This document shows positions 18,652 through 48,064 of a stretch of DNA of 64,000 nt, one piece after another (the stretch's first letter is position 1; each line of letters begins with the position of its first letter). The notes beneath the pieces were generated by a model, which saw only the letters and a program-made list of their open reading frames with translations, did not search any database and was not told where the DNA came from. The stretch spans positions 55,574 to 119,573 of the forward strand of contig NZ_JBGMOE010000190.1 in the NCBI RefSeq assembly GCF_041424195.1, read 5' to 3'. A program made the position numbers and the translations under genes. The stretch comes from Tardiphaga sp. Its GTDB lineage: Bacteria; Pseudomonadota; Alphaproteobacteria; Rhizobiales; Xanthobacteraceae.

Positions 18652-18667
18652 TCGCAAGCGCCTGCTT

Positions 18668-20849: not shown

Positions 20850-20903
20850 CGAAAAGTCCTCAGACGATCAAGGCACTCTCTAATACAAAAACACATACTA
20901 AAA

Positions 20904-22403: not shown

Positions 22404-22473
22404 AGGCGCGCCGCCGCGGTCCGATCAGGGACCATCCGAGCTTTCAAACCGAGAACCGAGCAGCGATACGCAG

Positions 22474-26470: not shown

Positions 26471-27184
26471 CTAGTGAATGCCGACGCCGACCAGCCGATC
26501 GACCAGCGCGCGGTCGGCTGTCAGCACATCCGGCTCGCCGCTCCAGCTGGTCCGGCCCCGTTCCATCACCATGACGCTGTTCGCGAAATCGAGCGCGCGC
26601 TCGATCTGCTGCTCGACCAGAATGATGGTAACTTCGCTGGTAGCGGCCAGCTGCGCCAGCAATGCCATCAGCTCGTCGCAGATCACGGGCGCGAGACCTT
26701 CCAGCGGCTCATCCAGCAACAGGATCGAGGGCTTGCCCAGCAGGGTCCGGGCCATCGACAGCATCTGCTGCTCGCCACCCGACAATTGCTTGCCATAATT
26801 GCCGCGACGTTCGCGCAGGCGCGGAAACATCGCATAGGCCTCGTCGAGTGCCGACGCCGGCCTGCCCTTCAGCCCGGTGCGCAGATTCTCCTCCACCGTC
26901 AGCGAGGCGAAAATGTCGCGGGTCTGCGGCACATAGCCGATCCCGAGGTCGGCGCGCGCCGAGGTGCGTTTGGCCGTGACGTCCTGGTCACCGATCCTGA
27001 TCTCGCCGCCATGGCGCGTCGTCAGGCCCATCAGCGTTGCCAGCAGCGTGGTCTTGCCCATGCCGTTACGGCCGAGCACGGCGAGACGGTCGCCGGCCTT
27101 CACCGAAAACGAGATGTCCTCGATGATCCGCGTCGGGCCGTAGCCCGCGCTGAGGTTCCGGATTTCAAGTGGCGCGGCGGGCAT
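26471..27184 (-). CDS. LIV-type ABC transporter ATP-binding protein (LivF-like)
   Basis: GRNGMGKT, LSGGEQQM, LLLDEP, VEQ; start 27184 preferred from RBS spacing (alternative 27190). Confidence 0.9.
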   Translation of the reverse strand: MPAAPLEIRNLSAGYGPTRIIEDISFSVKAGDRLAVLGRNGMGKTTLLATLMGLTTRHGGEIRIGDQDVTAKRTSARADLGIGYVPQTRDIFASLTVEENLRTGLKGRPASALDEAYAMFPRLRERRGNYGKQLSGGEQQMLSMARTLLGKPSILLLDEPLEGLAPVICDELMALLAQLAATSEVTIILVEQQIERALDFANSVMVMERGRTSWSGEPDVLTADRALVDRLVGVGIH

Positions 27185-27929
27185 CGGCATAGCTCCCCAG
27201 ATACGCGCGACGCACTTCGTGATCGGCAGTAACGGCGTCAGGCGATCCCTCGAATATCAGCCGCCCGGCCGCCAGCACCAGCACGCGCTTGGCAAACTTG
27301 AACACCAGATCCATGTCGTGCTCGATCATCAGGACGGCGATATCCGCCGGCAGACGATTGATCGCGTCCAGTATCTTCGGTGCTTCGTCATGCGGTACAC
27401 CGGCGGCGGGCTCGTCGAGCAGCAACACCTTCGGATGCAGCGCGAGGCCGATGGCAAGCTCGATCAGGCGTTGCTGGCCGTAAGCGAGTTCAACCACCCT
27501 GCGATAGGCCAGATGATCGAGACCGAGATGGCTCAGGATCTCACTCCATTCGGCGCGGACTTCCGGCAATTCGGTCGAGCGAGAGAAGAATCGCCGTGTG
27601 ATGCGCTTGCGTTGCATGATCGCCAGCGCAACGTTGTCGGCGACCGTGAGATTGGCGAACAGGCGCGTGGTCTGGAATGTCCGAACCAATCCGCGACGTA
27701 CACGATCGGGAATGCTGAGGTTGGTGATCTCATCACCGCCCATGAAGAACTGGCCTCCGCTCGGCACGATGTCACCGGTAATCAGGTTGACCAGCGTGGT
27801 CTTGCCGGCACCGTTCGGCCCGATCAGCGCGACGCGGTCACCCGCAGCGAGCTTGAAATTGACGTCGCAGGTGACCTGCAATCCGCCGAACGAACGCGAA
27901 ACGCCGCGGGCTTCCAGGAGATCGCTCAT
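27165..27929 (-). CDS. LIV-type ABC transporter ATP-binding protein (LivG-like)
   Basis: Start MSDLLEARG; GPNGAGKT, LAYGQQR, LLLDEPAAG, IEHDMD. Confidence 0.9.
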   Translation of the reverse strand: MSDLLEARGVSRSFGGLQVTCDVNFKLAAGDRVALIGPNGAGKTTLVNLITGDIVPSGGQFFMGGDEITNLSIPDRVRRGLVRTFQTTRLFANLTVADNVALAIMQRKRITRRFFSRSTELPEVRAEWSEILSHLGLDHLAYRRVVELAYGQQRLIELAIGLALHPKVLLLDEPAAGVPHDEAPKILDAINRLPADIAVLMIEHDMDLVFKFAKRVLVLAAGRLIFEGSPDAVTADHEVRRAYLGSYADARRAT

Positions 27930-28927
27930 GCAGCGCTCCCCTTGCGCCTGAGGCGGGAGGTCAGCGACAGCATCGGTTCGATCAGGCCGCGCGGCGCGAA
28001 TACCACGATCAGGATCAGCAACAATCCGACCAGCGTCATCCAGTGGAACGGATTGGCGGCGGCGACGATGTGCTCGAAGATCATGAAGATGATCGTCCCG
28101 GCCAGCGCGCCCCACAGATGCCCGGCGCCACCGAGCACCAGCATCACCAGCACTTCGGCCGAGCGCTCAAAACTGACGCTATCGAGGCCCACTACTCCGG
28201 TGCTGATCGCTGTCAGTGCGCCGCCGACGCCAGCCACGGCGCCAGCCACGCCATACATCAGCACGAGACGCGGATAGATCGAGACGCCAATCATCCTTGC
28301 GCGCAGGTCGTCGTCCTTGATGCCACGGCACATCAGACCGAATGGCGAGCGCACGAAGCGCTGCAGCAGCACGAAGACAATAACCAGCACGCCCAGCGAG
28401 AACAAAAATGCCGTGCGGCTGTACATGTCGAAACTGAAGATGCCGAACACCTTACCCGGTGTGATACCGGACAGGCCGTCGCTGCCCCCGGTCAGCCACG
28501 ACAGCTTGTTGGCAAGCGCGGCCACCAATTGCCCCACGGCAATCGACAGCACCAGTTGCGGCAGCCCGCGAAACCGCGTGATCAGCGCGCCGGAGATCAG
28601 CCCCATGATCGTGCCCGCAAACACGCCGACCGCCAGCAATGCGACAGGATCTGTAATGCCACGCACGCAAGCAATGCCGGCGGCATAGGCGCCCACGCCG
28701 AATTGCGCGGCATGACCGAGGGTGGCGACGCCGCAATAGCCGGTGACCAGATCGAGCGACAGCACCAGGAATGCGATGCCGATCAAGCGCGTCAGGAACG
28801 CCAGATCGTCCGGATACAGAAAATAGCCGATGGCACCGAGCGCGATGATGCTCAGCGCACCTGCCGCTTCCTGGCCAAAGGGAATGTTGCGCTTGTGCGG
28901 AACGTGAGTCACGACGATCTCGCTCAT
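27926..28927 (-). CDS. LIV-type ABC transporter permease (LivM-like)
   Basis: Start MSEIVVTH overlapping the livH stop; LSLDLVTGYCGVATLGHAAQFG, SPFGLMCRGIKDD. Confidence 0.88.
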   Translation of the reverse strand: MSEIVVTHVPHKRNIPFGQEAAGALSIIALGAIGYFLYPDDLAFLTRLIGIAFLVLSLDLVTGYCGVATLGHAAQFGVGAYAAGIACVRGITDPVALLAVGVFAGTIMGLISGALITRFRGLPQLVLSIAVGQLVAALANKLSWLTGGSDGLSGITPGKVFGIFSFDMYSRTAFLFSLGVLVIVFVLLQRFVRSPFGLMCRGIKDDDLRARMIGVSIYPRLVLMYGVAGAVAGVGGALTAISTGVVGLDSVSFERSAEVLVMLVLGGAGHLWGALAGTIIFMIFEHIVAAANPFHWMTLVGLLLILIVVFAPRGLIEPMLSLTSRLRRKGSAA

Positions 28928-29793
28928 GCGTGCGACCTGCCGAACAGGCCATGCGGAAACAGGAACACGATGAAGATCACCGACAGATAGAAGAAGAAGT
29001 CGCCGAACTCCGGCGCAAGATATTTGCCGGTGGTGTCGGCGAGGCCGAGCAGCAGCGACGCCGACAGAGCACCAAGGATCGAGCCTGCACCGCCGACAGA
29101 GACGACGACCAGGAACGTCACCATATAGCGCAGCGCATAGAACGGTTCGATCGGCAGGATCTCCGCGCCGACCACGCCACCGAATGCACCGAGCCCGATC
29201 GCCAGCGCGAAGGTCACCGCGTAGATGATCTCGGTGCGGATGCCCAAGGCGTCCGCCATACCGCTGTGATCGACCGAGGCGCGCAGCTTGATTCCGAACT
29301 CCGTCTTCTCGATCAACAACCACAACGCCAGCGCCGTAATCACGCCGCAGGCGATGACAAAGATGCGATGGGTTGGCAGCATCCGGAAGCCGATATCGAG
29401 CGGGCCACTGAGGGTCTGTGGCAGCGGAATCGATTTCAGCGACGGGCCGAAGATGAAGTTGACGATGCCGATGATGAAAAACGTGATGCCGATGGTCATC
29501 AGCACCTGAATCAGCGGATCGGACTTCCGGTAGATCCGGCGGTACAGCAGAATCTCGAACGGGATCGAAACGATGATGGTGCCGATCACTGCCATCAGGA
29601 TCGCAACGCTGTAATGCACATGCAGGTCGCGGATCGCATAGGAGGCCAGATAACCGCCAATCATGGCGAAAGCGCCATGGGCGAGGTTCACGACGCGCAT
29701 CAGCCCCATCATGATGGACAGGCCGATGGAAATGATGAACAGAACCATCCCATAGGCGACGGCGTCGGTCATGATGCTGAAGATGGTGCGCAT
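28924..29793 (-). CDS. LIV-type ABC transporter permease (LivH-like)
   Basis: Start MRTIFSIM; SIGLSIMMGLMRVVNLAHGAF, TEFGIKLRASV. Confidence 0.9.
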   Translation of the reverse strand: MRTIFSIMTDAVAYGMVLFIISIGLSIMMGLMRVVNLAHGAFAMIGGYLASYAIRDLHVHYSVAILMAVIGTIIVSIPFEILLYRRIYRKSDPLIQVLMTIGITFFIIGIVNFIFGPSLKSIPLPQTLSGPLDIGFRMLPTHRIFVIACGVITALALWLLIEKTEFGIKLRASVDHSGMADALGIRTEIIYAVTFALAIGLGAFGGVVGAEILPIEPFYALRYMVTFLVVVSVGGAGSILGALSASLLLGLADTTGKYLAPEFGDFFFYLSVIFIVFLFPHGLFGRSHA

Positions 29794-29801
29794 GATTGAT
29801 C

Positions 29802-31436
29802 CTATACCGAAGCAGCGACCGAACGCCATTCCGGCGACTGCGGCAAGGCGTCATGGACGACGGCGCCACGCACCATGGTGAGCAGCACCTGCGTCTCTTT
29901 CAGAGGGAGGCGCTCGGCGGCGAAGGGATCGCGATCAAGTGCGATCAGATCGGCCGCCATGCCCGGCATCAGCGTGCCGCGCCAGTTATCCTGCTTCATC
30001 GCGGTGGCGCCACCGACCGTATAGCTGTGAATGGCTTCGCGGACGCTGACGGCTTCACCCTGCCCGATCGGCGCACCGCTGTCCGAGGCGCGGTTCACCG
30101 CGTCGGCGATGCCATCCCACGGAGACCACGACCCGGTCGGCGCATCCGAGCTGGCGATGTAGGCAACACCCGCGTCGATCACGGAGCGGCCGGGATAGCA
30201 ACGGTCGGCGCGCGGACCGAACGCGCCGGCAATCGAGCGCCGCATCCGGGTGAGGAAACTCGGCTGGGTGACGACCAGCGCGCCCAATGCCTTCATCCGT
30301 GCCAGTCCACCGGCAGGTGGCACGAAGTAATGTTCGATGCGATGCCGGGCATCGGCGCGGGGATGCGCCGCCTGCGCCTTCTCATAGGCTTCGATGATGC
30401 AGTCGATGCCGCGATCGCCGGTACAATGAACGGCGACTTGCCAGCCGTCCGCATGGGCCTCGGCGATCACGCGCTGCAGCTCGGTTTCATCGCGCATGAA
30501 CATGCCGCGGGATGGCGTATCGAAGAAATCCTCGCTCACGGCCGACGTTCGCGCGCCGACGATGCCATCGGCGAAATATTTCAGCGTCATGGACTGCCAG
30601 TCGGCATCTGGCGTCGGCGCCAACCCACGCGCCTCCGCTTCAGCCGGGTCGAGCTGGTTCATGAAGCCGAGCCGCATTGGCAGCACATCGCCATTCGCGC
30701 GGATCTCGTTCCAGATGGCGAACTCATCATCGAAACCGACGGTGAATCCAACCGCGGCTTCCACGGCAGCAACAAGACCGAGCCTGGCGCTGTCGGCAAT
30801 TGTCGCGCGCAGAGCCGCGGCGAGCTCGTTGCGGTCCATCGGCGGCGCGGCACGGAAAATCAGTTCGGCCGCGCTTTCTTTGGCGCTGCCGTCCAGTCGA
30901 CCGTCCTCGGAGCGCCCGAACGTGCCGCCTTCCGGATCGGCGATAGCATCGTCGATGCCCAGCAGTCGCAGCGCGGCACTGTTGACGACGGCGACATGAC
31001 CGCAGAACCTGCGGATCAGCACCGGATGATCGGGAATGACGGCATCGATCTCGGCACGTGCCAGCAGCCGGTGTTCGGTCAGACCGTTCTCATCGAGGCC
31101 AGCACCGTAAACCCATCTGTCTGACGGAATGGCGCCTGCGCGTGCAACCAGCAGATCTAGCACGGCAGATATCGTTGGTGCATCGCGGGGCGTCACCGGC
31201 ACCTGCAGTCGCGCATGAGCGATGGCGAACAGATGAATATGCGCGTCGGTCAGGCCGGGAATGACGGTGGCACCCGCGAGATCGATCGTCTCGTCGGCGG
31301 ATGGCGCAACATCCGCTGCGCCGATCCAGACCACCTTGCCATCGCGGACGACGATGCTCTCCGCGGGAGCTTTATCCCAGGCAGAACGATAGATGCGGGC
31401 ATTGATCAGTCGAACGGTGTGCGCGGACCTGGTCAT
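29802..31436 (-). CDS. Amidohydrolase_3 (YtcJ/NfdA-like) metal-dependent hydrolase, cytoplasmic
   Basis: PGLTDAHIH, KYFADG, VHCTGD, RHRIEH, SSDAP; no signal peptide. Confidence 0.85.
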   Translation of the reverse strand: MTRSAHTVRLINARIYRSAWDKAPAESIVVRDGKVVWIGAADVAPSADETIDLAGATVIPGLTDAHIHLFAIAHARLQVPVTPRDAPTISAVLDLLVARAGAIPSDRWVYGAGLDENGLTEHRLLARAEIDAVIPDHPVLIRRFCGHVAVVNSAALRLLGIDDAIADPEGGTFGRSEDGRLDGSAKESAAELIFRAAPPMDRNELAAALRATIADSARLGLVAAVEAAVGFTVGFDDEFAIWNEIRANGDVLPMRLGFMNQLDPAEAEARGLAPTPDADWQSMTLKYFADGIVGARTSAVSEDFFDTPSRGMFMRDETELQRVIAEAHADGWQVAVHCTGDRGIDCIIEAYEKAQAAHPRADARHRIEHYFVPPAGGLARMKALGALVVTQPSFLTRMRRSIAGAFGPRADRCYPGRSVIDAGVAYIASSDAPTGSWSPWDGIADAVNRASDSGAPIGQGEAVSVREAIHSYTVGGATAMKQDNWRGTLMPGMAADLIALDRDPFAAERLPLKETQVLLTMVRGAVVHDALPQSPEWRSVAASV

Positions 31437-31471
31437 CAGAAAGAAAATCTCATATCGCGCATCCCGTCGAT

Positions 31472-31596
31472 GTCATTCCGGGACGTCCTGAAGTCGGCGA
31501 AGCCGACGATAGGGCAGCCCGGAATCTCGACGTGTTCATCTCATCTCGGGATTCCGGGGTCGCGCGCAGCTTGCGCTGCGCACGCCCCGGAATGAC
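31472..31596. repeat. RIME/REP-like palindromic intergenic element (GTCATTCCGGG family)
   Basis: Terminal inverted repeats GTCATTCCGGG (31472-31482) / CCCGGAATGAC (31586-31596); internal CCCGGAATC (31518-31526) / GATTCCGGG (31550-31558). Confidence 0.8.
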
Positions 31597-31603
31597 AATA
31601 GTA

Positions 31604-32779
31604 TTACTTCGTGCTCAGCGCCCAGTCCGGCTGATCGGCGAAGGTCTGGCTTTCCTTGTTGATCAGCTTGCCGTCCACCTTCTCCACACTGCGCAGATAG
31701 ACGTTCTGGCGAATGTGACGCGTCGTCGGATCGATCGACACCGGACCGCGCGGCGAGACCCACTTCATGTCCTTGACGGCATCAACTGCCTTGGCGGGAT
31801 CGCGCTTGCCGTCGGTGGCCTCGATCATCTTGTAGATCAGGCGCGCGCCGTCATAGGCAGCGACCGATGTCATGGTGACTTCGTCGAGGTTGCCGCCGCC
31901 CTTCTTGATGGTGGCAAGGAAGGCCGCGTTCTCCTTGGAGTCGTGCGACACCGAATAGTGATAGGTCGAGAGGATACCGATGCCGGCATCGCCGATATTC
32001 GGCAGATCGGGTTCGGTGACGACGTCACCGGTCGACATCAGCTTGACACCGCCGGCCTTCAATCCGTTGTCGATATAGGCCTTGACGAAGCCCAGCGTCG
32101 GCGGCCCCGATGGCAGGAAGGTGAAGATGGTGTCAGCGCCGGAATCCTTGATGCGCTGCATGATCGGGCTGAAGTCGGTGGTGGCGAGCGGAATGCGGAT
32201 CGCTTCGACCACCGCGCCGCCCTCGCCTTCGAACGTCTTCTTGAATGCCGCTTCGGCATCGACACCCGGACCGTAATCGCTGACTGCGATGGCCACCTTC
32301 TTGGCACCGTTCTTGAACGCAATTTTCGCGGCAGGCACCGTGTTCTGCCACATCGTGAACGAGGTACGGACGATATAGGGGCTCTTCTCGACAATCGACG
32401 AGGTCGCCGCATTCATCACGATCAGCGGCGTCTTGGATTCTTCCAGCAACGGCGCGATGGCCATCGCGTTCGGCGTGAAATAGACGCCAGCGAGATATTG
32501 CACCTTGTCCTTGACCAGCAGCTCCTGCGCCAGCGCCTTTGACTTGGCGGGATTCGGGCTTTCTTCATCGCGATAGATGAATTCGACGTCATGCTTGCCT
32601 GCTTTGGTGCCATGCTCGGCGACCCAGGCGTCGATGCCCATCTTGAAGTTCTTGCCAAACAGCGCGTAAGGGCCCGACATGGTGCCGATCACGCCGACCT
32701 TGATGGTGTCGGCAGAGGCCGTGCCGGTCATCAGGCCGAGAATGGCCAGTGCAAGAATGGAGTGGCTGCGTCTGTTCAT
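31604..32779 (-). CDS. LIV-type ABC substrate-binding protein (likely aromatic acid ligand)
   Basis: Signal peptide; IKVGVIGTMSGP, YRDEES, VRTSFT patterns of the PBP1 family. Confidence 0.88.
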   Translation of the reverse strand: MNRRSHSILALAILGLMTGTASADTIKVGVIGTMSGPYALFGKNFKMGIDAWVAEHGTKAGKHDVEFIYRDEESPNPAKSKALAQELLVKDKVQYLAGVYFTPNAMAIAPLLEESKTPLIVMNAATSSIVEKSPYIVRTSFTMWQNTVPAAKIAFKNGAKKVAIAVSDYGPGVDAEAAFKKTFEGEGGAVVEAIRIPLATTDFSPIMQRIKDSGADTIFTFLPSGPPTLGFVKAYIDNGLKAGGVKLMSTGDVVTEPDLPNIGDAGIGILSTYHYSVSHDSKENAAFLATIKKGGGNLDEVTMTSVAAYDGARLIYKMIEATDGKRDPAKAVDAVKDMKWVSPRGPVSIDPTTRHIRQNVYLRSVEKVDGKLINKESQTFADQPDWALSTK

Positions 32780-32826
32780 TGCGGTTGTCCCCGTTGGAAA
32801 GTTAAGAAAACTATTGGCAAACCTGT

Positions 32827-32841
32827 ATTCAATAAACGTGC
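32827..32841. promoter_or_regulatory. Weak copy of the PcaR-type operator motif upstream of the SBP gene
   Basis: ATTCA-ATAAA-CGTGC shares the TTCAATA-N-ACG core with sites at 37476 and 37616. Confidence 0.3.
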
Positions 32842-32881
32842 CGAGATGGCACGCTTGAACCGGCGTCAGCGCGCCGACGCC

Positions 32882-34318
32882 TCAGAACATCTCAAAATAT
32901 TCGCGCTGCTCCCAGTCGGAGACTTCCGCCTGGAAGCGATCGATCTCGGCATTCTTGATGTGGGTGTAATAGTCGACCATCGTCGCGCCCATCTTCTCGC
33001 GGAAGAACGGATCCTCCTTGAGCGCAAAGGTCGCCTCGCGCAGCGACTTCGGCAACAGATCTGCGTTGGTCTCGTAGGGCGTGTCGGCTGACGGGCCTGG
33101 ATCGAGCTTGCGATCGACGCCGTCGAGACCCGAGAGAATCTGCGATGACATGTAGAGGTAGGGATTGGCCGCAGGCTCGCCGACGCGGTTTTCGATGCGT
33201 GTCGCGGAATCATTCAAGCCGCCGAGCACACGCAGCATCGCGCCGCGATTGTCGCGACCCCAGATTGCACGATCCGGCGCCAGCGAATAGGAGCGATAGC
33301 GCTTGTATCCGTTGATCGTCGGCGTCGTGAAGACCGTAGCGGCGCGCGCATGCGCAAGAAGCCCCGCGAGATAGCCTTGCCCGAACGATGACAGCGGCTG
33401 CGTGCCCTCGGTCGGCATGAACGCATTTGCGCCCGTGTCCCGCGATACGATCGACTGATGCAGATGCCAGCCCGATGACACGACATTCGGGATCTTCGGC
33501 CGGCACATGAACGTCGCGTGATAGCCGTGGCGATGGGCGATCTGCTTCACGGCGCTGCGGAACAGCACCATGCTGTCGGCTGGCGTCAGCCCCACCGTCG
33601 GCGCAAAAGTGAATTCGCACTGGCTCGGGCCGTATTCGACTTCCACCGAACGCAATGGAAGACCAAGCGCAATCACATCACGCCGGATGATTTCGAGCAC
33701 CGGCTCCATCTGATCGTAGCGCTGCTCGGTGAGGTAGTTGTAGCCGTGCGAGAGCAGACTGACCTCCGGCGGATTGCCGGGCTGGCCGGCATCTTCCGGC
33801 TTCATCCGGTTGTTCTCGACATTGAAGATATGAAACTCGACTTCGAGCCCGGCGACGAAATCGTAGCCGCGATTACCGAGATCGCCGAGCACCTTCTTGT
33901 AGAGGTTACGCGTCACGAACGGCACGGGACGGCCGTCGGAAAAATGCACGTCGCACAACACCCAGCCGGTCTCAGGCGCCCAGGGCAGAATCCGAAACGT
34001 GCTGGGATCGGGGATCATCAAGACGTCGGCCGCGCCCTGCATTTCGGGAATGCCGAAGCCGCCCCCGGCGGTGAACACCGGAAACACCGTCTTGTGCGAG
34101 GTGTCCTTGGCGAACATCGTCGTGGTGATGGAGCAACCGCTTTCGAGACAACGCAACGCCTCGCTGGCGATCAGCGTCTTGCCGCGCAGGATGCCGTGCT
34201 GATCCGGAAACGACAGCCGGATCACTTCGAGCTTATGCTCTTCGACCATGCTGCGCAGCCGGACGGCTGCTTCCTTCTGCTCCGCGGACCACAAACCGTG
34301 ACGTTCAACGAAACTCAA
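32882..34318 (-). CDS. Glutamine synthetase-like gamma-glutamyl-amine ligase (AtdA1/TdnQ/SadB-like)
   Basis: TTG start 34318 after GGGAGAG; GLEVEF, EVEYGPSQCEF, SGWHLHQS, YSLAPDR, ENRVGEPAANPYLY, WEQREYFEMF. Confidence 0.85.
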   Translation of the reverse strand: MSFVERHGLWSAEQKEAAVRLRSMVEEHKLEVIRLSFPDQHGILRGKTLIASEALRCLESGCSITTTMFAKDTSHKTVFPVFTAGGGFGIPEMQGAADVLMIPDPSTFRILPWAPETGWVLCDVHFSDGRPVPFVTRNLYKKVLGDLGNRGYDFVAGLEVEFHIFNVENNRMKPEDAGQPGNPPEVSLLSHGYNYLTEQRYDQMEPVLEIIRRDVIALGLPLRSVEVEYGPSQCEFTFAPTVGLTPADSMVLFRSAVKQIAHRHGYHATFMCRPKIPNVVSSGWHLHQSIVSRDTGANAFMPTEGTQPLSSFGQGYLAGLLAHARAATVFTTPTINGYKRYRSYSLAPDRAIWGRDNRGAMLRVLGGLNDSATRIENRVGEPAANPYLYMSSQILSGLDGVDRKLDPGPSADTPYETNADLLPKSLREATFALKEDPFFREKMGATMVDYYTHIKNAEIDRFQAEVSDWEQREYFEMF

Positions 34319-34349
34319 CGCACTCTCCCGCGGCTGTTCTGATCGATTT

Positions 34350-35717
34350 TCACTCTGCCGCCGGCAGGTGGATGACATTGGATCCCGGCTCGGTCTGATC
34401 GGCCGGAGCGGCTGCCATCCATGGCGCACCGCGGCGACGGGCGACGTCGACTTCCATCCAGTAGGTTTCCCAGCCCTTGGTCGGTCCGATGCCGTCCATG
34501 GTGCCCGGACCCTGGATGCTGCGCGCGGTGTCCGCATCGAGGGACATCATCGGCTTTTGACCACCGGCGACCTTCTCGATCTCCGCACGCAACAGCTTGC
34601 GATAGGCGATGATCGCCTTGTCGCTGGAGCCGAGATGCTCGCGGGTGCGATCCTGGATCTTGCCCATCGACTCCACCGCCCACTGGTCGTGGACGTTGAT
34701 GTCGGCGCCCATGCCCGTATAGGTCTCGTGCTTCTGCTCGTGCGGATTGAAACCGTAATCGTTGGTCTTGTTCTTGCGCGACGTATAGTTCGGCAGCTCG
34801 TAAAGTTCGAGCCGCTGGTCGGTCATCTTCTTCTTGTCGACCGGCTGGGTGTAGCTGGTGAAGATCGCGTACCAGTAGCAGTTCTCGTCATCGACCGGCA
34901 CATGCCACTGGGTGATGGTCATTTCCGTGCTCATGGGAATGACGAAGCCATGCGGGAAGAGCTGGTTGGTAACGCGCACATGGGTGCGTTCGTCGTCGAG
35001 CTCGCGTAGCGCGATCAAACGAAGACCGTATTCGGTCGACTCCACATTGATGATCGGGCGATCATATTCGCGCAGGATCTTGGTCATCGGCAGCTCAGTG
35101 CCAGCGGACGCACCGCGGAACTGCTTGCCGTAGGAGGCCTTGACGTCCTCGTCCTCGAAGAAGCGATGCAGGAACGAGGCATGGGCAGGATCGATACCGA
35201 CTTCCAGCGCCTGCAGCCAGTTGCATTCGAACAGGCCCTTGAAGGCGAAGGTGTACTGGCCGGGTGCGGCGAAACAGTCGAGCTCCGGAAATGCCGGCGG
35301 CTCGCCTTCGCCCAGATAAGCCCAGAGGATGCCGCCCTTCTCGACCACCGGATAGGCGCGCTGCTTGATGCCGGCGCAGAGTTTCGAGGTCTTCGGCTCG
35401 GCCGGGGTCTCCAGGCACTTGCCCTCGACGTCGAACAGCCAGCCATGAAATGCGCAACGCACGCCGCCGCCTTCGAGACGGCCGAAAGCGAGGTCAGCAC
35501 CGCGATGCGGACAGTCGCGATCGAGCAGGCCGTAGCGGCCCTGCTCGTCACGGAACAGCACGAAGTTCTCGCCCAGCAATTTGACCGGACGGATCGGACG
35601 ATCCCCTTCGAGCTCATCGACCAGTGCCGCTGGCTGCCAGTATTGGCGCATCAGCTTGCCCGCGGGCGCCTTGGGGCCGATGCGGGTGATCAGATCGTTC
35701 TGCTCTTGGCTCATCAT
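34350..35717 (-). CDS. Rieske aromatic ring-hydroxylating oxygenase, alpha-only (phthalate dioxygenase/LigXa/SadA-like)
   Basis: Rieske motif CPHRG...CAFHGW; mononuclear Fe motif EVGIDPAHASFLH; NVHDQWAVES; start MMSQEQND. Confidence 0.9.
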   Translation of the reverse strand: MMSQEQNDLITRIGPKAPAGKLMRQYWQPAALVDELEGDRPIRPVKLLGENFVLFRDEQGRYGLLDRDCPHRGADLAFGRLEGGGVRCAFHGWLFDVEGKCLETPAEPKTSKLCAGIKQRAYPVVEKGGILWAYLGEGEPPAFPELDCFAAPGQYTFAFKGLFECNWLQALEVGIDPAHASFLHRFFEDEDVKASYGKQFRGASAGTELPMTKILREYDRPIINVESTEYGLRLIALRELDDERTHVRVTNQLFPHGFVIPMSTEMTITQWHVPVDDENCYWYAIFTSYTQPVDKKKMTDQRLELYELPNYTSRKNKTNDYGFNPHEQKHETYTGMGADINVHDQWAVESMGKIQDRTREHLGSSDKAIIAYRKLLRAEIEKVAGGQKPMMSLDADTARSIQGPGTMDGIGPTKGWETYWMEVDVARRRGAPWMAAAPADQTEPGSNVIHLPAAE

Positions 35718-35754
35718 GGCAAAATGTCCTTCTATAACTCCGGCGATGCGCCGC

Positions 35755-37455
35755 TTAACGCTGAAATACAATCTTGCCGCCGACCATCGTCATATCGGCG
35801 GTGATGTCCTTGATCTGGCCGTCCGGCACCGTCATGAAGTCGGCGGAGAGAACCACGAGATCGGCCAGCTTGCCGGCCTCCAGCGTCCCCTTCCGCGCCT
35901 CCTCAAACATGTAGCGCGATGCCGCACTGGTATAGAGGCGAAGCGCCTGTTCACGCCCGATCGCTTCGGACGCGCCATAGACCTGGCCGGCCGGGTCCTT
36001 GCGCGTCACCATAATATACATCGTGAGGAACGGGTTTAACGGGTTGACCGGGAAATCGGTGCCGGCGCCGAGATTCTCCAGTCCCATTTTCTCGATCAGG
36101 GTGCGCGTCGGCACCGCACGATCCGCTGTCGGCCTGCCAAGGAAACGCGCGACCGTCGCCGCCTTGTCCCACATGAAGGCGTTCTGGAAATCGATCCGCG
36201 CCCCGACGCGGCGCGCCCGCTCCATCTGTTCGGGGCGGATCAGGCTGGCATGGATCAAAACGAAGCGGCGATCCTTGATCGACTTTTCCTTGTCGGTGGC
36301 TTCGAACGCATCCAGCACGTGATCGACGCCGAGGTCGCCAACGACATGTACGCCGACCCGCCAGCCGCGAAGGTTGGCGATCGACACCAGCTGCTTCAGC
36401 CGCTCGGGCGTGACCTGCGCGACCCCATGATAATCGTCATGCGAGTCCGGATAGGCGTCGCGCATCATGGCCGTCTTCAGGGTCATGCCGCCGTCGTAGA
36501 AGATCTTGATGCCGCCGAGCTTCAACCAATCGTCGCCGAAACCCGAGGTGGCACCGTTGCCGCTCATGATGGCGTCCCACCCGGCCGAGTCCGCGGGCGG
36601 CTCCGGTCGAAACATGGTTCCGACCCGCACCGTCGCATCGCCTGCCAAAGCGAGCTTCTGCAGGATCTGCGTGTCGCGCGCGCTCGTCGCGCCCTCGACG
36701 ACGCTGGTGATACCGAGGCGGTTGAGCGCGGCCTCGGCGAGACGATATTGCCGCAACTCCTCGTCTTCGGTGAAGGGCGGCACGATGTTCTCGACCAGCG
36801 GGATCGCCGTCTCGACGAGCACGCCATTGATGTCGCCGCTTGCGTCCCGCTCGAACGCGCCGCCGGCCGGATCCGGTGTATTCTTGCTGATGCCCGCCTT
36901 CTGCAAGGCCAGCGAATTGGCCATCGCAAAGTGACCGACGGTCCGCAGATAGACCGGATTGTTGGGGGACACGCTGTCGAGCTCCTGGCGGGTCAGGTAG
37001 CGCTTTTCCGCCAGTTGCGACGGCGGATGCCAGCCGCCGGTCGTGATCCACGCGCCGGGCTGCTTCTTCGCAACGAACGCCCGAATGAGATCGAGCGCGC
37101 CGGCCACGTCCCTGGCGCCGCCGAGATTGACCACATAGTCGCCGAGCCCCGCCGCTCTGAAATGCGCGTGGGTGTCGATCAGGCCGGGGACGACTGACTT
37201 GCCGGCGAGGTCGATGACCCTGGTCTGCGGACCCGCCAGCGGCTTGATCGCAGCGTCGCTGCCGACCGCGAGGATCTTGCCGTCGCGGATGGCCAGCGCT
37301 TGCACGATCGTCGACTGGTCGTCGAGGGTGAGGATCTTGCCGCCCGTCAGGACCACCTGGGGCGCGTTCGGGTCTGATTGCTGCGCCACAGCCGGCAGGA
37401 CGGCGGCAGCAATCGCAATTGCTCCCACAATCAGGAATTTCCCACCCAGATGCAT
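35755..37455 (-). CDS. Amidohydrolase_3 (YtcJ/NfdA-like) hydrolase with N-terminal signal peptide
   Basis: MHLGGKFLIVGAIAIAAAVLPAVA-QQ signal; PGLIDTHAH, KIFYDG, VHVVGD, LIHAS, GTDFP. Confidence 0.85.
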   Translation of the reverse strand: MHLGGKFLIVGAIAIAAAVLPAVAQQSDPNAPQVVLTGGKILTLDDQSTIVQALAIRDGKILAVGSDAAIKPLAGPQTRVIDLAGKSVVPGLIDTHAHFRAAGLGDYVVNLGGARDVAGALDLIRAFVAKKQPGAWITTGGWHPPSQLAEKRYLTRQELDSVSPNNPVYLRTVGHFAMANSLALQKAGISKNTPDPAGGAFERDASGDINGVLVETAIPLVENIVPPFTEDEELRQYRLAEAALNRLGITSVVEGATSARDTQILQKLALAGDATVRVGTMFRPEPPADSAGWDAIMSGNGATSGFGDDWLKLGGIKIFYDGGMTLKTAMMRDAYPDSHDDYHGVAQVTPERLKQLVSIANLRGWRVGVHVVGDLGVDHVLDAFEATDKEKSIKDRRFVLIHASLIRPEQMERARRVGARIDFQNAFMWDKAATVARFLGRPTADRAVPTRTLIEKMGLENLGAGTDFPVNPLNPFLTMYIMVTRKDPAGQVYGASEAIGREQALRLYTSAASRYMFEEARKGTLEAGKLADLVVLSADFMTVPDGQIKDITADMTMVGGKIVFQR

Positions 37456-37475
37456 CTCGCCGCCCCATCAAAGAT

Positions 37476-37490
37476 GTTCAATAGACGAAC
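37476..37490. promoter_or_regulatory. PcaR/PobR-type IclR operator 1
   Basis: GTTCA-ATAGA-CGAAC, 1 mismatch to GTNCG-N5-CGNAC, 21 bp upstream of the amidohydrolase start. Confidence 0.6.
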
Positions 37491-37615
37491 TAATGTGCGA
37501 ATATTATCGTTAGAAGAATTCCAGGCAAGCAGAATTTTACAGCATGAACTGATGGGTTATTGAGCAAGTGCAGCAATTCACGCCCAAAGCATCGCCTTGC
37601 GCAGAACGAACACTT

Positions 37616-37630
37616 GTTCAATATACGGAC
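37616..37630. promoter_or_regulatory. PcaR/PobR-type IclR operator 2
   Basis: GTTCA-ATATA-CGGAC, near-duplicate of site 1, upstream of the reductase-iclR operon. Confidence 0.6.
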
Positions 37631-37698
37631 GCAATTCAGGAGCTGATGATGTCGAACACTTTGAATTCGTGTGCGGATCGAACCCAGGGAGCGCGCTC

Positions 37699-38919
37699 GT
37701 GAGCGGCCTCGTGATTGTCGGCGCCTCCTATGCAGGCGTCCAGGCGGGCATTAGCGCGCGCGAGAAGGGCTATCAGGCGCCGATCCGCATCGTCGCCGAT
37801 GAAATCCATCTGCCCTATCAGCGCCCGCCATTGTCGAAGGCGTTTCTCTCCGGTGACGTCGCGCATAACAGCCTTTTCCTCCGCGGCGAGGACTATTTCA
37901 AGACCCAGGGCATCGACCTGGTGCTGGGTCATCGCGCCGTCGGGCTCGACCGCGCCGCCGGCCGGATCGCACTGGAAGGCGGCGACAGCCTGCCCTTCGA
38001 CCAACTCGTCATCGCCACCGGCTCGCGCGCACGGCGCCTCAGCGTGCCCGGCCATGAGCGCGACGGCATCGTCTATCTACGCACCCTCGATGACGCACAA
38101 CATCTGAAGCCGCGACTCGAAGCGGCCAATGATGTCGTTATCGTCGGCGGCGGCTTCATCGGCCTCGAAGTGGCGTCGACCGCCGCCAAGGCCGGCAAGA
38201 AGGTGACGCTGATCGAGGCGCAGTCGCGCCTGCTGGAGCGCGCGGTGTCGCCGCTGATTTCGCAATTCCTGCTCGACGCCCATCGCTCCCATGGCCTCGA
38301 CATCCGCTTCAACGAATCCGTCGTCGCCATCGAAGGCAACAATGCGGTGCATGAGGTCGTCTGCTCCAGCGGCCTGCGGGTGCGGGCCGATCTAATCGTC
38401 GCCGGCATCGGCGGCATCGCCAATGATGAGTTGGCAGCCGCGGCGGGCATCGCCTGTACCAACGGCATCGATGTGGACGAGCATGGCTTGAGCAGCGCGC
38501 CGAACATCTATGCTGCCGGCGACGTCAGCAATCACTACAACTCATTCGCGGGCCGCCGCGTGCGCCTCGAAGCCGTGCAGAACGCCACCGATCAGGGCAA
38601 GGCCGCGGGCGCAATGATCGCCGGCAAGCCGGAAGCCTATGATGCGGTGCCGCGTTTCTGGTCGGATCAATATGACGCCAAGCTGCAGATCGTCGGTCTC
38701 TCTGCGCCGACCGACAGCGCAGTGATCCGCGGTTCGATGGACGACGGCAAGTTCTCGGTCTTCTATTATCGCGACGGCAAGCTCACCGCCGTTGACAGTA
38801 TCAACCGGCCGGGCGACCAGATGATCGCACGCCGCCTGATCACCGCGGCGCTGTCGCCGACGCCGGAACAGGCCGCCGATCTGTCATTCGATCTGAAAAA
38901 ATTCGAAGCCGGCAAATAG
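37699..38919 (+). CDS. GR-type FAD/NAD ferredoxin reductase
   Basis: GTG start after AGGGAG; IVGASYAG, PYQRPPLSK, IVGGGFIGLE, YAAGD, PRFWSDQY. Confidence 0.9.
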   Translation: MSGLVIVGASYAGVQAGISAREKGYQAPIRIVADEIHLPYQRPPLSKAFLSGDVAHNSLFLRGEDYFKTQGIDLVLGHRAVGLDRAAGRIALEGGDSLPFDQLVIATGSRARRLSVPGHERDGIVYLRTLDDAQHLKPRLEAANDVVIVGGGFIGLEVASTAAKAGKKVTLIEAQSRLLERAVSPLISQFLLDAHRSHGLDIRFNESVVAIEGNNAVHEVVCSSGLRVRADLIVAGIGGIANDELAAAAGIACTNGIDVDEHGLSSAPNIYAAGDVSNHYNSFAGRRVRLEAVQNATDQGKAAGAMIAGKPEAYDAVPRFWSDQYDAKLQIVGLSAPTDSAVIRGSMDDGKFSVFYYRDGKLTAVDSINRPGDQMIARRLITAALSPTPEQAADLSFDLKKFEAGK

Positions 38920-38935
38920 GGCGGACCCACGGCTC

Positions 38936-39721
38936 ATGCCCAAGATCAAGCGTCCCGACGACGAACGCGGCAATACCGACTTCATCGAGAGCCTCGATCG
39001 GGGCTTGCGGGTGTTCGAATTGTTCGGCGCACATTCGCGCCCGATGACGCTGAGCGATGTCGCCAAGGCCGCCGAGCTGCCGCGCGCCACTGCCCGGCGC
39101 ATCCTGTTCACGCTGGAGCGCAAGGGTTATGTGACCAGCGACGGCAAGCTGTTCGCGCTGTCCCCGCGCGTCCTGGCGCTGGCCGGCTCCTATATGACCT
39201 CCAATCAGGTCGTCACCATCCTGCAGCCCGTGCTCGACAGCATCTCCAGCGCCGCGCAAGAGATTTCGTCGCTCGCGGTGCTCGAGGGCCATGAGGTGAT
39301 CTTCGTCGCTCGCGCCAGCCCGGCGCGGGTGTTCTCCGCCGGCATCGATCTCGGCTACCGGCTGCCGGCATTCTGCTCGTCGGTGGGCCGCGCGATGTTG
39401 GGCAAGTATTCCAACGACGACCTCACCGCAGCGCTGGATGCCATGGACCTCGTGGCGATGACGCCCTTCACGGTAACCGACAAGGAACTGCTGAAGGCCA
39501 CCATCATCACCGACCGCGAGAAAGGCTATTCGCTGGTCGACCGCGAGGCCGAGCCGGGCTTCCGCTCGATCTCGGTGCCGGTGCGGCGCTACGATGGCGC
39601 GATCGTCGCCGCCATCAATATGGGCGCCCATGTCGACCGCGTCTCCACCGGCGAGATGATCGATCGCTTCCTGCCGCTGCTGCGCGATGCCGCCAACTCC
39701 GTGAAGCCGCTGCTGCTTTGA
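38936..39721 (+). CDS. IclR family regulator, PcaR/PobR subgroup
   Basis: FIESLDRGLRV, LPRATARRIL, GYRLPAFCSSVGR, RSISVPV. Confidence 0.9.
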   Translation: MPKIKRPDDERGNTDFIESLDRGLRVFELFGAHSRPMTLSDVAKAAELPRATARRILFTLERKGYVTSDGKLFALSPRVLALAGSYMTSNQVVTILQPVLDSISSAAQEISSLAVLEGHEVIFVARASPARVFSAGIDLGYRLPAFCSSVGRAMLGKYSNDDLTAALDAMDLVAMTPFTVTDKELLKATIITDREKGYSLVDREAEPGFRSISVPVRRYDGAIVAAINMGAHVDRVSTGEMIDRFLPLLRDAANSVKPLLL

Positions 39722-39730
39722 ATGCTCTAC

Positions 39731-39826
39731 CCTCATCCTGAGGAGCGGCCACTTGGTCGCGTCTCGAAGGATGACCCCACACTCATGGTTCGAGACCGCG
39801 CCAAGCGGCGCCCCCTCACCATGAGG
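39731..39826. repeat. Palindromic intergenic element (CCTCATCCTGAGG family)
   Basis: End units CCTCATCCTGAGG (39731-39743) and CCTCACCATGAGG (39814-39826); inner pair GTCTCGAA / TTCGAGAC. Confidence 0.75.
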
Positions 39827-39861
39827 TCCGAGATTGAACACGCACCAGGAATTGTCGTCTC

Positions 39862-40209
39862 ATGCCCCATATCGTCATCGAACACTCCACCGACGGTCAT
39901 GGCGGCCTGTTCGACGCTACCAGCCTGATGCAGGCTCTGCATGACGCAGCCGCCGCCACCGGCGTGATGCAGGCGGCGGACATCAAGGTCCGCGCGATGG
40001 CCTATGCGGATTACCTGCTTGCCAGGGAGCGCGACGGCTTCTGCCATGTCACCGTGTCCATGCTGGAAGGCCGCACGCCCGCGCAGAAAGTGGCGGTGAG
40101 CGAAGAGCTACGTGCCGCGATGGTCAGGCTGCTGCCGCAGACCAAGAGCCTCAGCGTCGATATCCGGGATATGGACTCCGTCGCCTACAAGAAGCGGCTG
40201 AACGAGTAG
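39862..40209 (+). CDS. 5-carboxymethyl-2-hydroxymuconate isomerase-like tautomerase (HpcD/CHMI family)
   Basis: 115 aa with N-terminal Pro (MPHIVIEHS), IKVRA, FCHVTVSMLEGR, SLSVDIRDM. Confidence 0.82.
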   Translation: MPHIVIEHSTDGHGGLFDATSLMQALHDAAAATGVMQAADIKVRAMAYADYLLARERDGFCHVTVSMLEGRTPAQKVAVSEELRAAMVRLLPQTKSLSVDIRDMDSVAYKKRLNE

Positions 40210-40385: not shown

Positions 40386-40425
40386 AAACGAAACCGGCGC
40401 GGCATTCCCTGGGAATGCCGCGCCG
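40386..40425 (-). terminator. Rho-independent terminator of the HU gene
   Basis: 15-bp arms CGGCGCGGCATTCCC / GGGAATGCCGCGCCG followed on the minus strand by GTTTCGTTTT. Confidence 0.75.
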
Positions 40426-40480
40426 TTCCCAATTCAGGTCGGCTGCGGTCACCTCATGGGCGACCGCGCCGGAGGTTCGC

Positions 40481-40780
40481 TTAGACCGCGTCCTTCGCAG
40501 CCTTGACCGGGCGAGCGCGCACGATCTTGCGGGCCGGCTTGGCCTTGAAGGTCATTGCTTCGCCGGTGAAGGGGTTGGTGCCCTTGCGTGCCTTGGTGGC
40601 GGGCTTCTTGATGACGACGAACTTGGCGAAGCCGGGAACGAGGAACACGCCGCTCTTCTTCAGCTCTTTGTAGCCGAGGGTCGCCATGGTCTCGATAACG
40701 CCCTTGACGTCCTTCTTCGAGAGCTCAGTGGTCTCAGCGATTTTCTCGATGAGCTGCGACTTCGTCATTTGGTCTGCCAT
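40481..40780 (-). CDS. HU family DNA-binding protein (divergent)
   Basis: 99 aa; MTKSQLIEKIA, VPGFAKF, ARKGTNPFTGE, KAKPARK. Confidence 0.9.
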   Translation of the reverse strand: MADQMTKSQLIEKIAETTELSKKDVKGVIETMATLGYKELKKSGVFLVPGFAKFVVIKKPATKARKGTNPFTGEAMTFKAKPARKIVRARPVKAAKDAV

Positions 40781-41032
40781 TTTGCACCTTTTGGTTTGCC
40801 GTGATTCGGTGAGACAGACACTATGAGGAATCACGGGAAAAAACCCGTGCTCAATGAAATTTTCACAGATTTTGCCGGGAAAAATGGTGTTTTTTGACCA
40901 CCAAACCCCGATTCGACTTGTACGGCAGGGTTTCGGGACCCTCGCAAGCGCAAAATACTTGAAACAAGGGGCCTACGGATTCGCCGCAGGCGCCGGAAAC
41001 GCACCGCCAAAATCACCCCCGGATTGGCGCCC

Positions 41033-41653
41033 TCACCACATGGTCTGACGCGCCCTTTCCGGCCAGGCGCGATCATAGTCGACGCCCCCGACCCGGCGCT
41101 CGCTCATCTCGGCCAGGATCTCGCCAGGCGTCGGCAAGGTCCTGGGATCGATGCGCTTGTCCGGGTCCCAGAGGTCCGAACGGACAATGGCCCGGGCGCA
41201 CTGGAAATAGATCTCCCCGATCGTCATCACGATGACTGTCCGCGGCGCCTTCTCCGCGACAGCGAAGGAGGCCAACAGCGCAGGATCGGCCGACAGATGG
41301 GCCTCGCCGTTGATACGCAGCGTCGTGCCGGAGCCCGGGATCAGGAACAGCAGCGCGATCCGCGGGTCTCGCACAATGTTGCGCAGGCTATCGACGCGGT
41401 TGTTGCCGCGGCGATCCGGCATCATGAGTGTCTTCTCGTCATGGATACGGACGAAGCCCGGCAGGTCGCCGCGCGGCGAACAGTCGAGCCCCTCGGGTCC
41501 CGATGTCGCCAGAGCGGCGAAGGGCGACACCTCGATCAGCCGGCGATATTGCGCCGTCACGCGATCCGCAACCTTGGCAGTGGAGGCTTCGCCGATATCA
41601 TTGAACCGGCCGTAGATCGCTTCGAGCTGCTCGATGGTTTCGATCACCGACAT
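41033..41653 (-). CDS. Pyridoxamine 5'-phosphate oxidase-like flavin-binding protein
   Basis: DCSPRGD, PDRRGNNRVDSLRNI, LLFLIPG, YFQCARAIVRS; 12 nt downstream of phnN. Confidence 0.82.
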   Translation of the reverse strand: MSVIETIEQLEAIYGRFNDIGEASTAKVADRVTAQYRRLIEVSPFAALATSGPEGLDCSPRGDLPGFVRIHDEKTLMMPDRRGNNRVDSLRNIVRDPRIALLFLIPGSGTTLRINGEAHLSADPALLASFAVAEKAPRTVIVMTIGEIYFQCARAIVRSDLWDPDKRIDPRTLPTPGEILAEMSERRVGGVDYDRAWPERARQTMW

Positions 41654-41675
41654 GGCCACACTCCCCCGCCCGTAT

Positions 41676-43405: not shown

Positions 43406-43416
43406 GGTTCTCTTTC

Positions 43417-44118: not shown

Positions 44119-44125
44119 CTTGACC

Positions 44126-46930: not shown

Positions 46931-46932
46931 GC

Positions 46933-47541: not shown

Positions 47542-47543
47542 GA

Positions 47544-48005: not shown

Positions 48006-48024
48006 GGTCACCGCGATCCGCAAC

Positions 48025-48050
48025 AAGTTGTATGATTTACTAGACAACTT
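48025..48050. promoter_or_regulatory. Inverted repeat, candidate PhnF operator
   Basis: AAGTTGT-N12-ACAACTT between divergent phnG and phnF. Confidence 0.5.
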
Positions 48051-48064
48051 TATAGGCCGGGGCA

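Follow-up and report, generated by a model that had tools for sequence, protein, structure and literature searches.

A Tardiphaga gene cluster related to the sad-type arylamine dioxygenase module, with a benzoate-type importer and two added amidohydrolases

Gene content, conservation and operators of the cluster

The window, which is the whole stretch of 64 kb of Tardiphaga DNA that was analysed, carries at positions 26471-40209 a gene cluster that combines a glutamine synthetase (GS)-like ligase and a Rieske oxygenase with an importer, two amidohydrolases, a reductase, a regulator and a tautomerase-like protein. The cluster is most likely a variant of the gamma-glutamylation-dependent, alpha-only arylamine dioxygenase module, to which a benzoate-type importer and amidohydrolases have been added. 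On the minus strand, one operon is headed by AH1 (35755-37455), an exported YtcJ-like metal-dependent amidohydrolase of 566 aa (PF07969 Amidohydro_3 over its full length, 2e-105), followed by an alpha-only Rieske oxygenase of the phthalate/isophthalate dioxygenase family (34350-35717; 455 aa; Rieske and LigXa_C domains) and by the GS-like glutamate-arylamine ligase (32882-34318; 478 aa; Gln-synt_C, 5e-80), whose TTG start sits behind a GGGAGA Shine-Dalgarno sequence. A second minus-strand operon encodes a periplasmic substrate-binding protein (SBP), putatively for para-substituted benzoates (31604-32779; Peripla_BP_6), the cytoplasmic YtcJ-like amidohydrolase AH2 (29802-31436; 544 aa; PF07969 Amidohydro_3, 4e-87) and the transporter genes livH (28924-29829), livM (27926-28927), livG (27165-27929) and livF (26471-27190), with two BPD_transp_2 and two ABC_tran domains and BCA_ABC_TP_C on livG. 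The plus strand carries a flavin adenine dinucleotide (FAD)-dependent ferredoxin-NAD(+) reductase (37699-38919; 406 aa; GTG start; Pyr_redox_2 and Reductase_C), an IclR-family regulator of the PcaR/PcaU/PobR subfamily (38936-39721; TIGR02431) and a CHMI-type tautomerase-superfamily protein (39862-40209; 115 aa; PF02962, 2.6e-12). Every gene of the run that the initial annotation had named from the sequence was found in its place, with matching domains.

The cluster was compared with 92 related loci, which are cited below by their numbers where needed. The Rieske and GS genes are neighbours in nearly all of them, in Alphaproteobacteria as well as in Betaproteobacteria. The full arrangement also occurs in Tardiphaga robiniae (L009) and Bradyrhizobium sp. 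LTSP885 (L008) and is hence not a chance juxtaposition. Most Bradyrhizobium loci have only the IclR, Rieske and GS genes; the SBP-Liv importer is found in Tardiphaga, Afipia, Rhodopseudomonas and some metagenome-assembled genomes (MAGs), and livHMGF is syntenic and 70-99% identical in L006, L008, L009, L015, L036 and others. The locus of Afipia broomeae (L036), for example, consists of a CHMI-like gene and an IclR-reductase-ferredoxin unit that is divergent from a Rieske-GS-SBP-AH2-livHMGF-pcaHG run. The tautomerase of the window begins with Met-Pro, which provides the catalytic Pro1 of the family, and its homologues lie beside the module in Novosphingobium resinovorum SA1 (47%), A. broomeae (48%), L008, L015, L047, L051 and L074. 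The CHMI-like gene of T. robiniae matches over about 99 codons only, is called as a 53-aa gene and is possibly decayed.

The regulator scores 303.2 bits with TIGR02431 against a cut-off of 284.75, as befits the PcaR-like protein for which it had been taken, and in most Nitrobacteraceae loci the IclR and Rieske genes diverge from each other. The divergent promoter contains a 16-nt operator-like sequence, TGTTCAATAnACGnAC, with the palindrome GTTC-N7-GAAC, at 37475 and 37615, and a copy with two mismatches lies at 32826. Site 1 (TGTTCAATAGACGAAC; 37475-37490, plus strand) is 20 nt 5' of the AH1 start codon, site 2 (TGTTCAATATACGGAC; 37615-37630, plus strand) is about 70 nt 5' of the reductase start codon, and site 3 (TATTCAATAAACGTGC; 32826-32841, plus strand) is 5' of the SBP-AH2-liv operon. 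Operator-like sites thus precede all three units, i.e. AH1-Rieske-GS, reductase-IclR and SBP-AH2-liv. Three sites in the window compare with 0.10 expected, and three were reached in none of 100 shuffles, so the shared operator motifs noticed at the outset stand. Site 3 is identical and in the same position in L008, L009 and L014-L016. Likewise, the motif GTTCrATAnnCGAAC precedes the Rieske gene in loci of the IclR type, among them those of Methylobacterium nodulans and N. resinovorum SA1; it was not found 5' of the Rieske gene in GntR-type betaproteobacterial loci, where the lone match, in L010, lies inside the reductase gene. A promoter and terminator scan performed no better than on shuffled sequence.

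The ligase-oxygenase pair and its characterised relatives

The best solved relative of the GS-like ligase is NpaA1, which glutamylates 1-naphthylamine (8wwu; 466 bits, 1.5e-138, 45% identity), the next structure reaching 187 bits. The ligase is 52% identical to TdnQ (L093), 61-82% identical to ligases that are partnered with alpha-only oxygenases, and 98% identical to a T. robiniae protein. The window comes from a T. robiniae-like alphaproteobacterium, and a search for sequencing runs, which returned DNA runs and no RNA, traces it to a crude-oil metagenome. It falls below the NCBIfam cut-offs for gamma-glutamylputrescine synthetase (235.6 against 650), GlnA (223.7 against 429) and type III GS (234 against 469.6). 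A PuuA-type polyamine ligase was therefore rejected, its score being far under the cut-off, and the ligase groups with the arylamine (AtdA1/NpaA1, 'GoaS') clade in which the initial annotation had placed it, so that the grouping with PuuA named there as a refutation did not come about. The five motifs which that annotation had named for the clade (FRILPWA, SGWHLHQS, YSLAPDR, GEPAANPYLY and WEQREYFE) are all present and align with near-identical motifs in NpaA1, a protein reported to be 90% identical to AtdA1 (PMC11335346).

The published substrate pocket of NpaA1 (PMC11335346) was mapped onto the alignment, the numbering being checked via V201 and Y205. Both of its amine-binding residues, E232 and E234, are retained in the window ligase. 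The hydrophobic aryl loop AIGPFFFD of NpaA1 and TdnQ corresponds to TTTMFAKDTSH(K/R)T in all 11 of the compared ligases with such a partner, and the same 11 have an invariant Lys at the position of NpaA1 F75'. The pocket loop is thus hydrophobic in aniline-type systems, whereas it is polar and basic in the window, and the Lys fits an anionic para substituent. The protein is predicted to be a gamma-glutamyl-4-carboxyanilide synthetase. Its orthologue in Rhodopseudomonas palustris appears to be GlnA4 (RPA0984), which is encoded beside RPA0985. GlnA4 is dispensable for ammonium assimilation and induced under nitrogen limitation, and its function was reported as unclear in 2023 (PMC10100968); the orthology predicts that it is an arylamine ligase. 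The R. palustris locus resembles the window in having an SBP gene near the GS-like gene, and differs from it in lacking both amidohydrolases and the reductase.

Among solved structures, the Rieske oxygenase is closest to isophthalate dioxygenase (9ina, 2e-68) and to the phthalate dioxygenases 7fhr and 7fjl. Isophthalate and phthalate dioxygenases consist of alpha subunits only, without a beta subunit. The oxygenase carries the motifs CPH-x17-CAFH and DPAHASFLH and is 67-88% identical across nearly all related loci. No beta-subunit gene is present among the cluster genes, nor do the annotations of L001-L003 and L010-L012 show one next to the pair; together with the phthalate-family structures, this supports the alpha-only oxygenase of the initial annotation. 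The enzyme is predicted to dioxygenate a gamma-glutamyl arylamide. The reductase is AndAa-like (3e-100) and HcaD-like (2e-93), with both scores under their cut-offs. Reductases 44-95% identical to it lie beside the pair in relatives, often next to a gene for a 107-aa 2Fe-2S ferredoxin (L001-L003, L010-L012, L036, L074 and L086). Plasmid pOM-1 of Nitratireductor sp. OM-1 (L012) encodes a Rieske oxygenase of 82% identity to that of the window, but a GS-like protein of only 52%, whose gene lies nearby in a separate transcription unit; here the oxygenase was apparently conserved and its ligase partner exchanged.

A tblastn search of plasmids with the GS-like protein found orthologues of 61-74% identity, each beside a Rieske orthologue of 67-79% identity, in M. 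nodulans, N. resinovorum SA1, Burkholderia/Caballeronia, Cupriavidus and Polaromonas sp. JS666, and these loci usually include a 2Fe-2S ferredoxin and an FAD reductase. With such orthologues in several genera, the core of the cluster (GS-like ligase, alpha-only Rieske oxygenase, reductase and IclR regulator) is, as far as sequence comparison can tell, a known module of the sadABCD type, and the first description of the system as undescribed had to be given up. For example, plasmid pSA3 of N. resinovorum SA1, a well-studied sulfanilate degrader, encodes orthologues of the Rieske oxygenase (78%), the ligase (70%), the reductase (57%) and the CHMI-like protein (47%), shares the IclR regulator and has an operator-like motif 5' of the Rieske gene; the orthologues adjoin a maleylacetate reductase gene. 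The sad operon comprises sadA for the oxygenase, sadB for the GS-like protein, sadC for a ferredoxin and sadD for a reductase (PMC5632844). Like the sad system of Hydrogenophaga intermedia PBC, the window has an alpha-only phthalate-family oxygenase gene by that of a GS-like protein and a GR-type FAD reductase. The sad system deaminates a para-amino aromatic acid to a catechol, and the same chemistry is proposed for the cluster. Unlike sad, the window is without a sadC-type ferredoxin gene and has in addition a benzoate-type SBP, LivHMGF and two YtcJ-like amidohydrolases, and its relatives tie the module to pcaHG and not to 4-sulfocatechol genes. When the Polaromonas sp. JS666 GS orthologue was used as a query for SadB, no Hydrogenophaga protein was among the best 120 matches (76-91%; Variovorax, Xylophilus, Ideonella and others). 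In that Polaromonas strain, a gene annotated as a CBASS oligonucleotide cyclase and its neighbours (L010, plasmid 1, 1511-2416) lie a few kb from the sad-like operon and are unrelated to it.

A second relative is the pab operon of Paraburkholderia terrae KU-15, reportedly described by Liu, Okano and Iwaki in J Biosci Bioeng in about 2024, which is said to convert 4-aminobenzoate via gamma-glutamyl-4-carboxyanilide to protocatechuate. In KU-15, PabA reportedly forms the anilide, PabB1-B3 oxidise it, and PabC, which resembles a glutamine amidotransferase (GATase), hydrolyses the anilide back. A locus of Burkholderia sp. RPE67 with genes for a Rieske oxygenase, a GS-like protein, a ferredoxin, a reductase and a C26 peptidase encodes proteins 69% and 66% identical to those of the window. 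We take its architecture to be that of pab, a likeness drawn from a related strain and not from the KU-15 sequences. The pab version is reportedly regulated by GntR/LysR proteins and has a major facilitator superfamily transporter, a ferredoxin and a GATase-like hydrolase, whereas the window cluster is IclR-regulated, has an ATP-binding cassette (ABC) importer but neither a ferredoxin nor a GATase, and carries two amidohydrolases instead.

The aniline and naphthylamine systems (AtdA1-A5, TdnQTA1A2B and NpaA1-A5) also share the GS-like ligase with its amine-binding glutamates. In these systems the arylamine is glutamylated before dioxygenation, and the free amine is no substrate for the oxygenase (PMC11335346). 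Aniline systems such as L093 have a GATase-like hydrolase, an alpha/beta oxygenase, a ferredoxin-NADP-reductase-type reductase and a LysR regulator, whereas the window has neither a GATase nor a beta subunit. The lack of a GATase, which had been noticed from the start, was borne out by tblastn with two GATase/C26 queries, which found no homologue in the 64-kb window. A classical aniline dioxygenase was rejected since the beta subunit and the GATase are both missing.

Substrate, product and proposed pathway

The SBP is 83% identical to PDB entry 4evs over 367 residues (E 4e-209). 4evs in turn shares 93-97% identity with the SBPs of two Rhodopseudomonas loci (L063 and L064), whose genes come immediately after the GS-like gene. 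We take 4evs to be R. palustris RPA0985, crystallised with 4-hydroxybenzoate, a label that is consistent with the identity to the Rhodopseudomonas SBPs and with the RPA0984/RPA0985 gene numbering. RPA0985 is reported to undergo a thermal shift of 29.5 C with 4-hydroxybenzoate (PMC3223731). The genes pcaH and pcaG follow directly after livF, within about 45 nt, in L006, L024 and A. broomeae (L036). A nitroreductase gene is near the pair in two distant loci, those of M. nodulans and Cupriavidus pinatubonensis, which fits a nitrobenzoate reduced to an aminobenzoate. Four independent lines of evidence, namely the SBP orthologue, the pcaHG adjacency, the Lys of the ligase pocket and the PcaR/PobR-type regulator with the nitroreductases, point to the conversion of a para-amino aromatic acid to protocatechuate. 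The first three of them also back the initial annotation, which had suggested an aminobenzoate-type substrate and protocatechuate as the product. A 4-hydroxybenzoate pathway was rejected because there is no PobA-type hydroxylase and because, in the loci linked to pcaHG, no route other than the GS-Rieske pair leads to protocatechuate.

It is fairly probable that the cluster is an IclR-controlled regulon by which a para-amino aromatic acid is taken up and degraded, 4-aminobenzoate (PABA) being the likeliest candidate. The data behind the scheme are the genes and their order, the assignment to families, the operators and the conservation across loci, and its chemistry is drawn from homology and genomic context. 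The free acid would be imported by the SBP and LivHMGF. The GS-like ligase would then, with ATP, join the gamma-carboxyl of glutamate to the aryl amino group, giving gamma-glutamyl-4-carboxyanilide. The alpha-only Rieske oxygenase would add two oxygens at the amide-bearing carbon and its neighbour, with electrons supplied by the FAD reductase via a ferredoxin encoded elsewhere, and the amide would leave, presumably as glutamine, to yield protocatechuate. The CHMI-like tautomerase might speed the keto-enol step after departure of the amide. Protocatechuate would finally enter the beta-ketoadipate pathway. The chemistry proposed at the outset is in this sense largely right, while the system that it was assigned to is already described in its core; the cluster extends known chemistry and adds no new principle.

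The same machinery may instead serve another para-amino acid, i.e. sulfanilate, 4-aminosalicylate, 4-aminophenylacetate or 4-amino-3-hydroxybenzoate, which we regard as unlikely. The experimentally studied system of the same architecture is the sulfanilate sad operon, strain SA1 carries orthologues, and a Lys or Arg in the ligase loop would suit a sulfonate no less than a carboxylate. A Bradyrhizobium strain is also reported to degrade sulfanilate (Hayase 2016, as cited in PMC5632844). However, pcaHG directly downstream in three relatives leads to protocatechuate and not to 4-sulfocatechol, the SBP is of a type that binds a benzoate, and the module occurs widely in Bradyrhizobium, Afipia and Rhodopseudomonas of non-polluted origin. 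The Hydrogenophaga authors themselves favour a natural analogue, as they found the operon conserved in strains from unpolluted sites and concluded that its natural substrate must resemble sulfanilate (PMC5632844). PABA is the preferred candidate, with sulfanilate as a possible alternative or side substrate.

Several observations weigh against the PABA regulon. The reductase is of a type that needs a ferredoxin, and no ferredoxin homologue was found by tblastn in the whole 64 kb; the initial annotation, although right about the genes that it listed, had overlooked this absence, in which the window differs from many relatives. Similarly, a pcaHG homologue is absent from the 64-kb window by tblastn. 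The sole ligand tested for an RPA0985-type SBP is 4-hydroxybenzoate, and aminobenzoate appears nowhere in the main text on the RPA0985 ligand screen, PABA apparently not having been screened (PMC3223731). The link to the experimentally tested SadA/SadB and PabA/PabB rests on architecture and on the SA1 orthologues. AH1 is absent from the Tardiphaga MAGs L014-L016 despite a 95% identical GS-like protein, and in Bradyrhizobium AZCC 2262 (L007) a 78% identical AH1 orthologue stands alone, by a GntR regulator and a TauT-type ABC transporter; because of these two facts, AH1 may serve another pathway. GATase-like hydrolases occur in the betaproteobacterial loci L003, L010 and L011 and never alongside AH2, but this complementary split tracks phylogeny and is hence weak evidence.

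Folate turnover releases PABA and its conjugates wherever it takes place. To our knowledge, their recycling by soil and root Bradyrhizobium, Tardiphaga, Afipia and Rhodopseudomonas is barely described. The PABA regulon offers a testable function for a module that is present in hundreds of Nitrobacteraceae genomes, R. palustris GlnA4 included, and a candidate for the natural substrate of the sad operon that its authors sought. If the regulon is real, the 'fourth glutamine synthetase' GlnA4 of Rhodopseudomonas and Bradyrhizobium would be assigned to the scavenging of arylamine nitrogen.

The two amidohydrolases and the flanking regions

The new part of the cluster looks to be the two co-regulated YtcJ-like amidohydrolases that are added to the known core. 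AH1 and AH2 share only 29% identity, and both keep the metal ligands HxH / Lys / His / His / Asp. Among solved structures, those closest to them (3igh and 3icj) belong to uncharacterised proteins and thus suggest no substrate, and neither NCBIfam nor PDB yielded a specific family for either of them. A tblastn search of plasmids with AH1 and AH2 returned paralogues of at most 38% identity, except for an AH1-like gene of C. pinatubonensis, and gave no functional hint. AH1 has a Sec-type signal peptide that ends in ...AVLPAVA before QQ; its orthologues also have a signal peptide, and the Cupriavidus homologue has a Tat/lipobox-like leader. AH2 has no signal peptide.

Genes of the AH1 type are near the Rieske-GS pair in three arrangements. 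The first is that of the window, L008 and L009, the latter two with 81% identity; in the second (L019 and L020), an AH1-like gene lies behind a perfect copy of the operator and is followed by a TauT/NMT1-type ABC importer; the third is that of the betaproteobacterium C. pinatubonensis (L011), where the AH1-like gene is on the opposite strand. The AH1-like proteins of L011, L019 and L020 are about 50% identical to AH1. AH2 is 60-92% identical and located between the SBP gene and livH in 11 Nitrobacteraceae-type loci (L008, L009, L013-L017, L024, L036 from Afipia, L047 and L051), and in L086 it comes directly after the GS gene. Most Bradyrhizobium loci carry neither amidohydrolase.

Our guess is that AH1 acts on an amide conjugate outside the cell, for instance N-acyl-PABA or the folate breakdown product p-aminobenzoyl-glutamate, and sets the aryl amine acid free, and that AH2 either deacylates the imported conjugate or hydrolyses the gamma-glutamyl anilide in the manner of the GATase-like AtdA2/TdnT. 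Taken together, the amidohydrolases may turn the PABA pathway into a route for bound PABA, with release by periplasmic AH1 and with AH2 as a non-homologous replacement of the GATase or as a cytoplasmic deacylase; this is a tentative suggestion, which we hold to be doubtful. Amidohydrolase-superfamily enzymes are known to free an arylamine from an amide or urea before glutamylation and dioxygenation, as do the phenylurea and anilide hydrolases HylA and PuhA/PuhB together with the aniline dioxygenase genes dcaQTA1A2B. The logic of these systems is that proposed for AH1 or AH2. The substrates of HylA, PuhA and PuhB are xenobiotic herbicides, and their hosts are Variovorax, Arthrobacter and Mycobacterium, whereas AH1 and AH2 share a regulon with an importer in soil Nitrobacteraceae. 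If the route for bound PABA is true, it would give first functions to an uncharacterised branch of the amidohydrolase superfamily. Having no characterised close relative, AH1 and AH2 are candidates for new aryl-amide cleavage, which is relevant to the breakdown of anilides and of azo-dye products.

It could also be that AH1 and AH2 are passengers that arrived by gene shuffling, the functional unit being only SBP-Liv, GS, Rieske oxygenase, reductase and IclR. Besides the bare IclR-Rieske-GS loci of Bradyrhizobium, the uneven distribution of AH1 in L014-L016 and L007 would agree with this, as would the transporter without AH2 in L006, the Rhodopseudomonas loci and L070. The same holds for the AH1 gene of T. 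robiniae (L009; LVYV01000023.1, 10001-11692), which is only 81% identical whereas its neighbours are 95-99% identical to the window; this suggests an allelic replacement by recombination, i.e. a recent exchange. On the other hand, AH1 is placed between the operator and the Rieske gene, so that it would have to be co-transcribed, and AH2 lies downstream of operator site 3, its end overlapping the longest livH open reading frame. The recurrence of AH1-like genes near the pair in three separate arrangements, one of them in a betaproteobacterium, and the retention of AH2 across several genera likewise make mere passengers an improbable explanation. It is very improbable that the ligase and the oxygenase do not cooperate at all, the former acting as a surplus glutamine synthetase or as a ligase of alkylamines or polyamines and the latter as an O-demethylase or aromatic-acid dioxygenase on free substrates. 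The high activity of recombinant GlnA4 in the GS assay, its raised expression under nitrogen limitation (PMC10100968) and the LigXa_C domain of the oxygenase would agree with this. They are outweighed by the lack of an effect of glnA4 deletion on growth with ammonium (PMC10100968), the scores of the ligase, which miss the GlnA and PuuA cut-offs by far and are best with NpaA1, the adjacency of the two genes in nearly all loci of two proteobacterial classes, and the inability of the aniline/naphthylamine oxygenase to act on the free amine (PMC11335346).

Genes of the AH1 type are found by TauT/NMT1-type transporters in two contexts (L019, 11556-16739, and L007, 3609-11701). The phthalate and aromatic-sulfonate importers belong to this transporter family, and AH1-type hydrolases may thus be recurrently linked with the import of anionic aromatics.

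Two spacers within the cluster contain repeats. Between the SBP and AH2 genes, a spacer of 167 nt (31437-31603) is full of nested inverted repeats, e.g. TGTCATTCCGGGACGT / ACGCCCCGGAATGACA, and resembles an insertion of the repetitive extragenic palindromic (REP) or miniature inverted-repeat transposable element (MITE) type; in Bradyrhizobium sp. LTSP885 (L008), the two genes are only 4 nt apart. A 44-nt imperfect inverted repeat with 73% complementarity (39731-39826) occupies most of the IclR-tautomerase spacer and could be a terminator or a repeat element.

Both flanks are unrelated to the cluster. Exopolysaccharide-type genes at 17473-25913, directly left of livF, form its left border and encode three GT4 glycosyltransferases, a polysaccharide deacetylase, a MurJ-like flippase and a GNVR/CbiA tyrosine-kinase-like chain-length regulator. 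The right flank (40395-48065) begins with a strong hairpin with a 14-bp stem at 40395-40425, followed by a gene for an HU-type DNA-binding protein (about 40481-40780, minus strand) and a PNPOx-family gene. It further contains the carbon-phosphorus lyase cluster phnGHIJKLMN, with phnG, phnH, phnI, phnJ, ABC ATPases, a PhnM-like amidohydrolase and a PhnN-like kinase, and T. robiniae shares the same right-hand neighbours.

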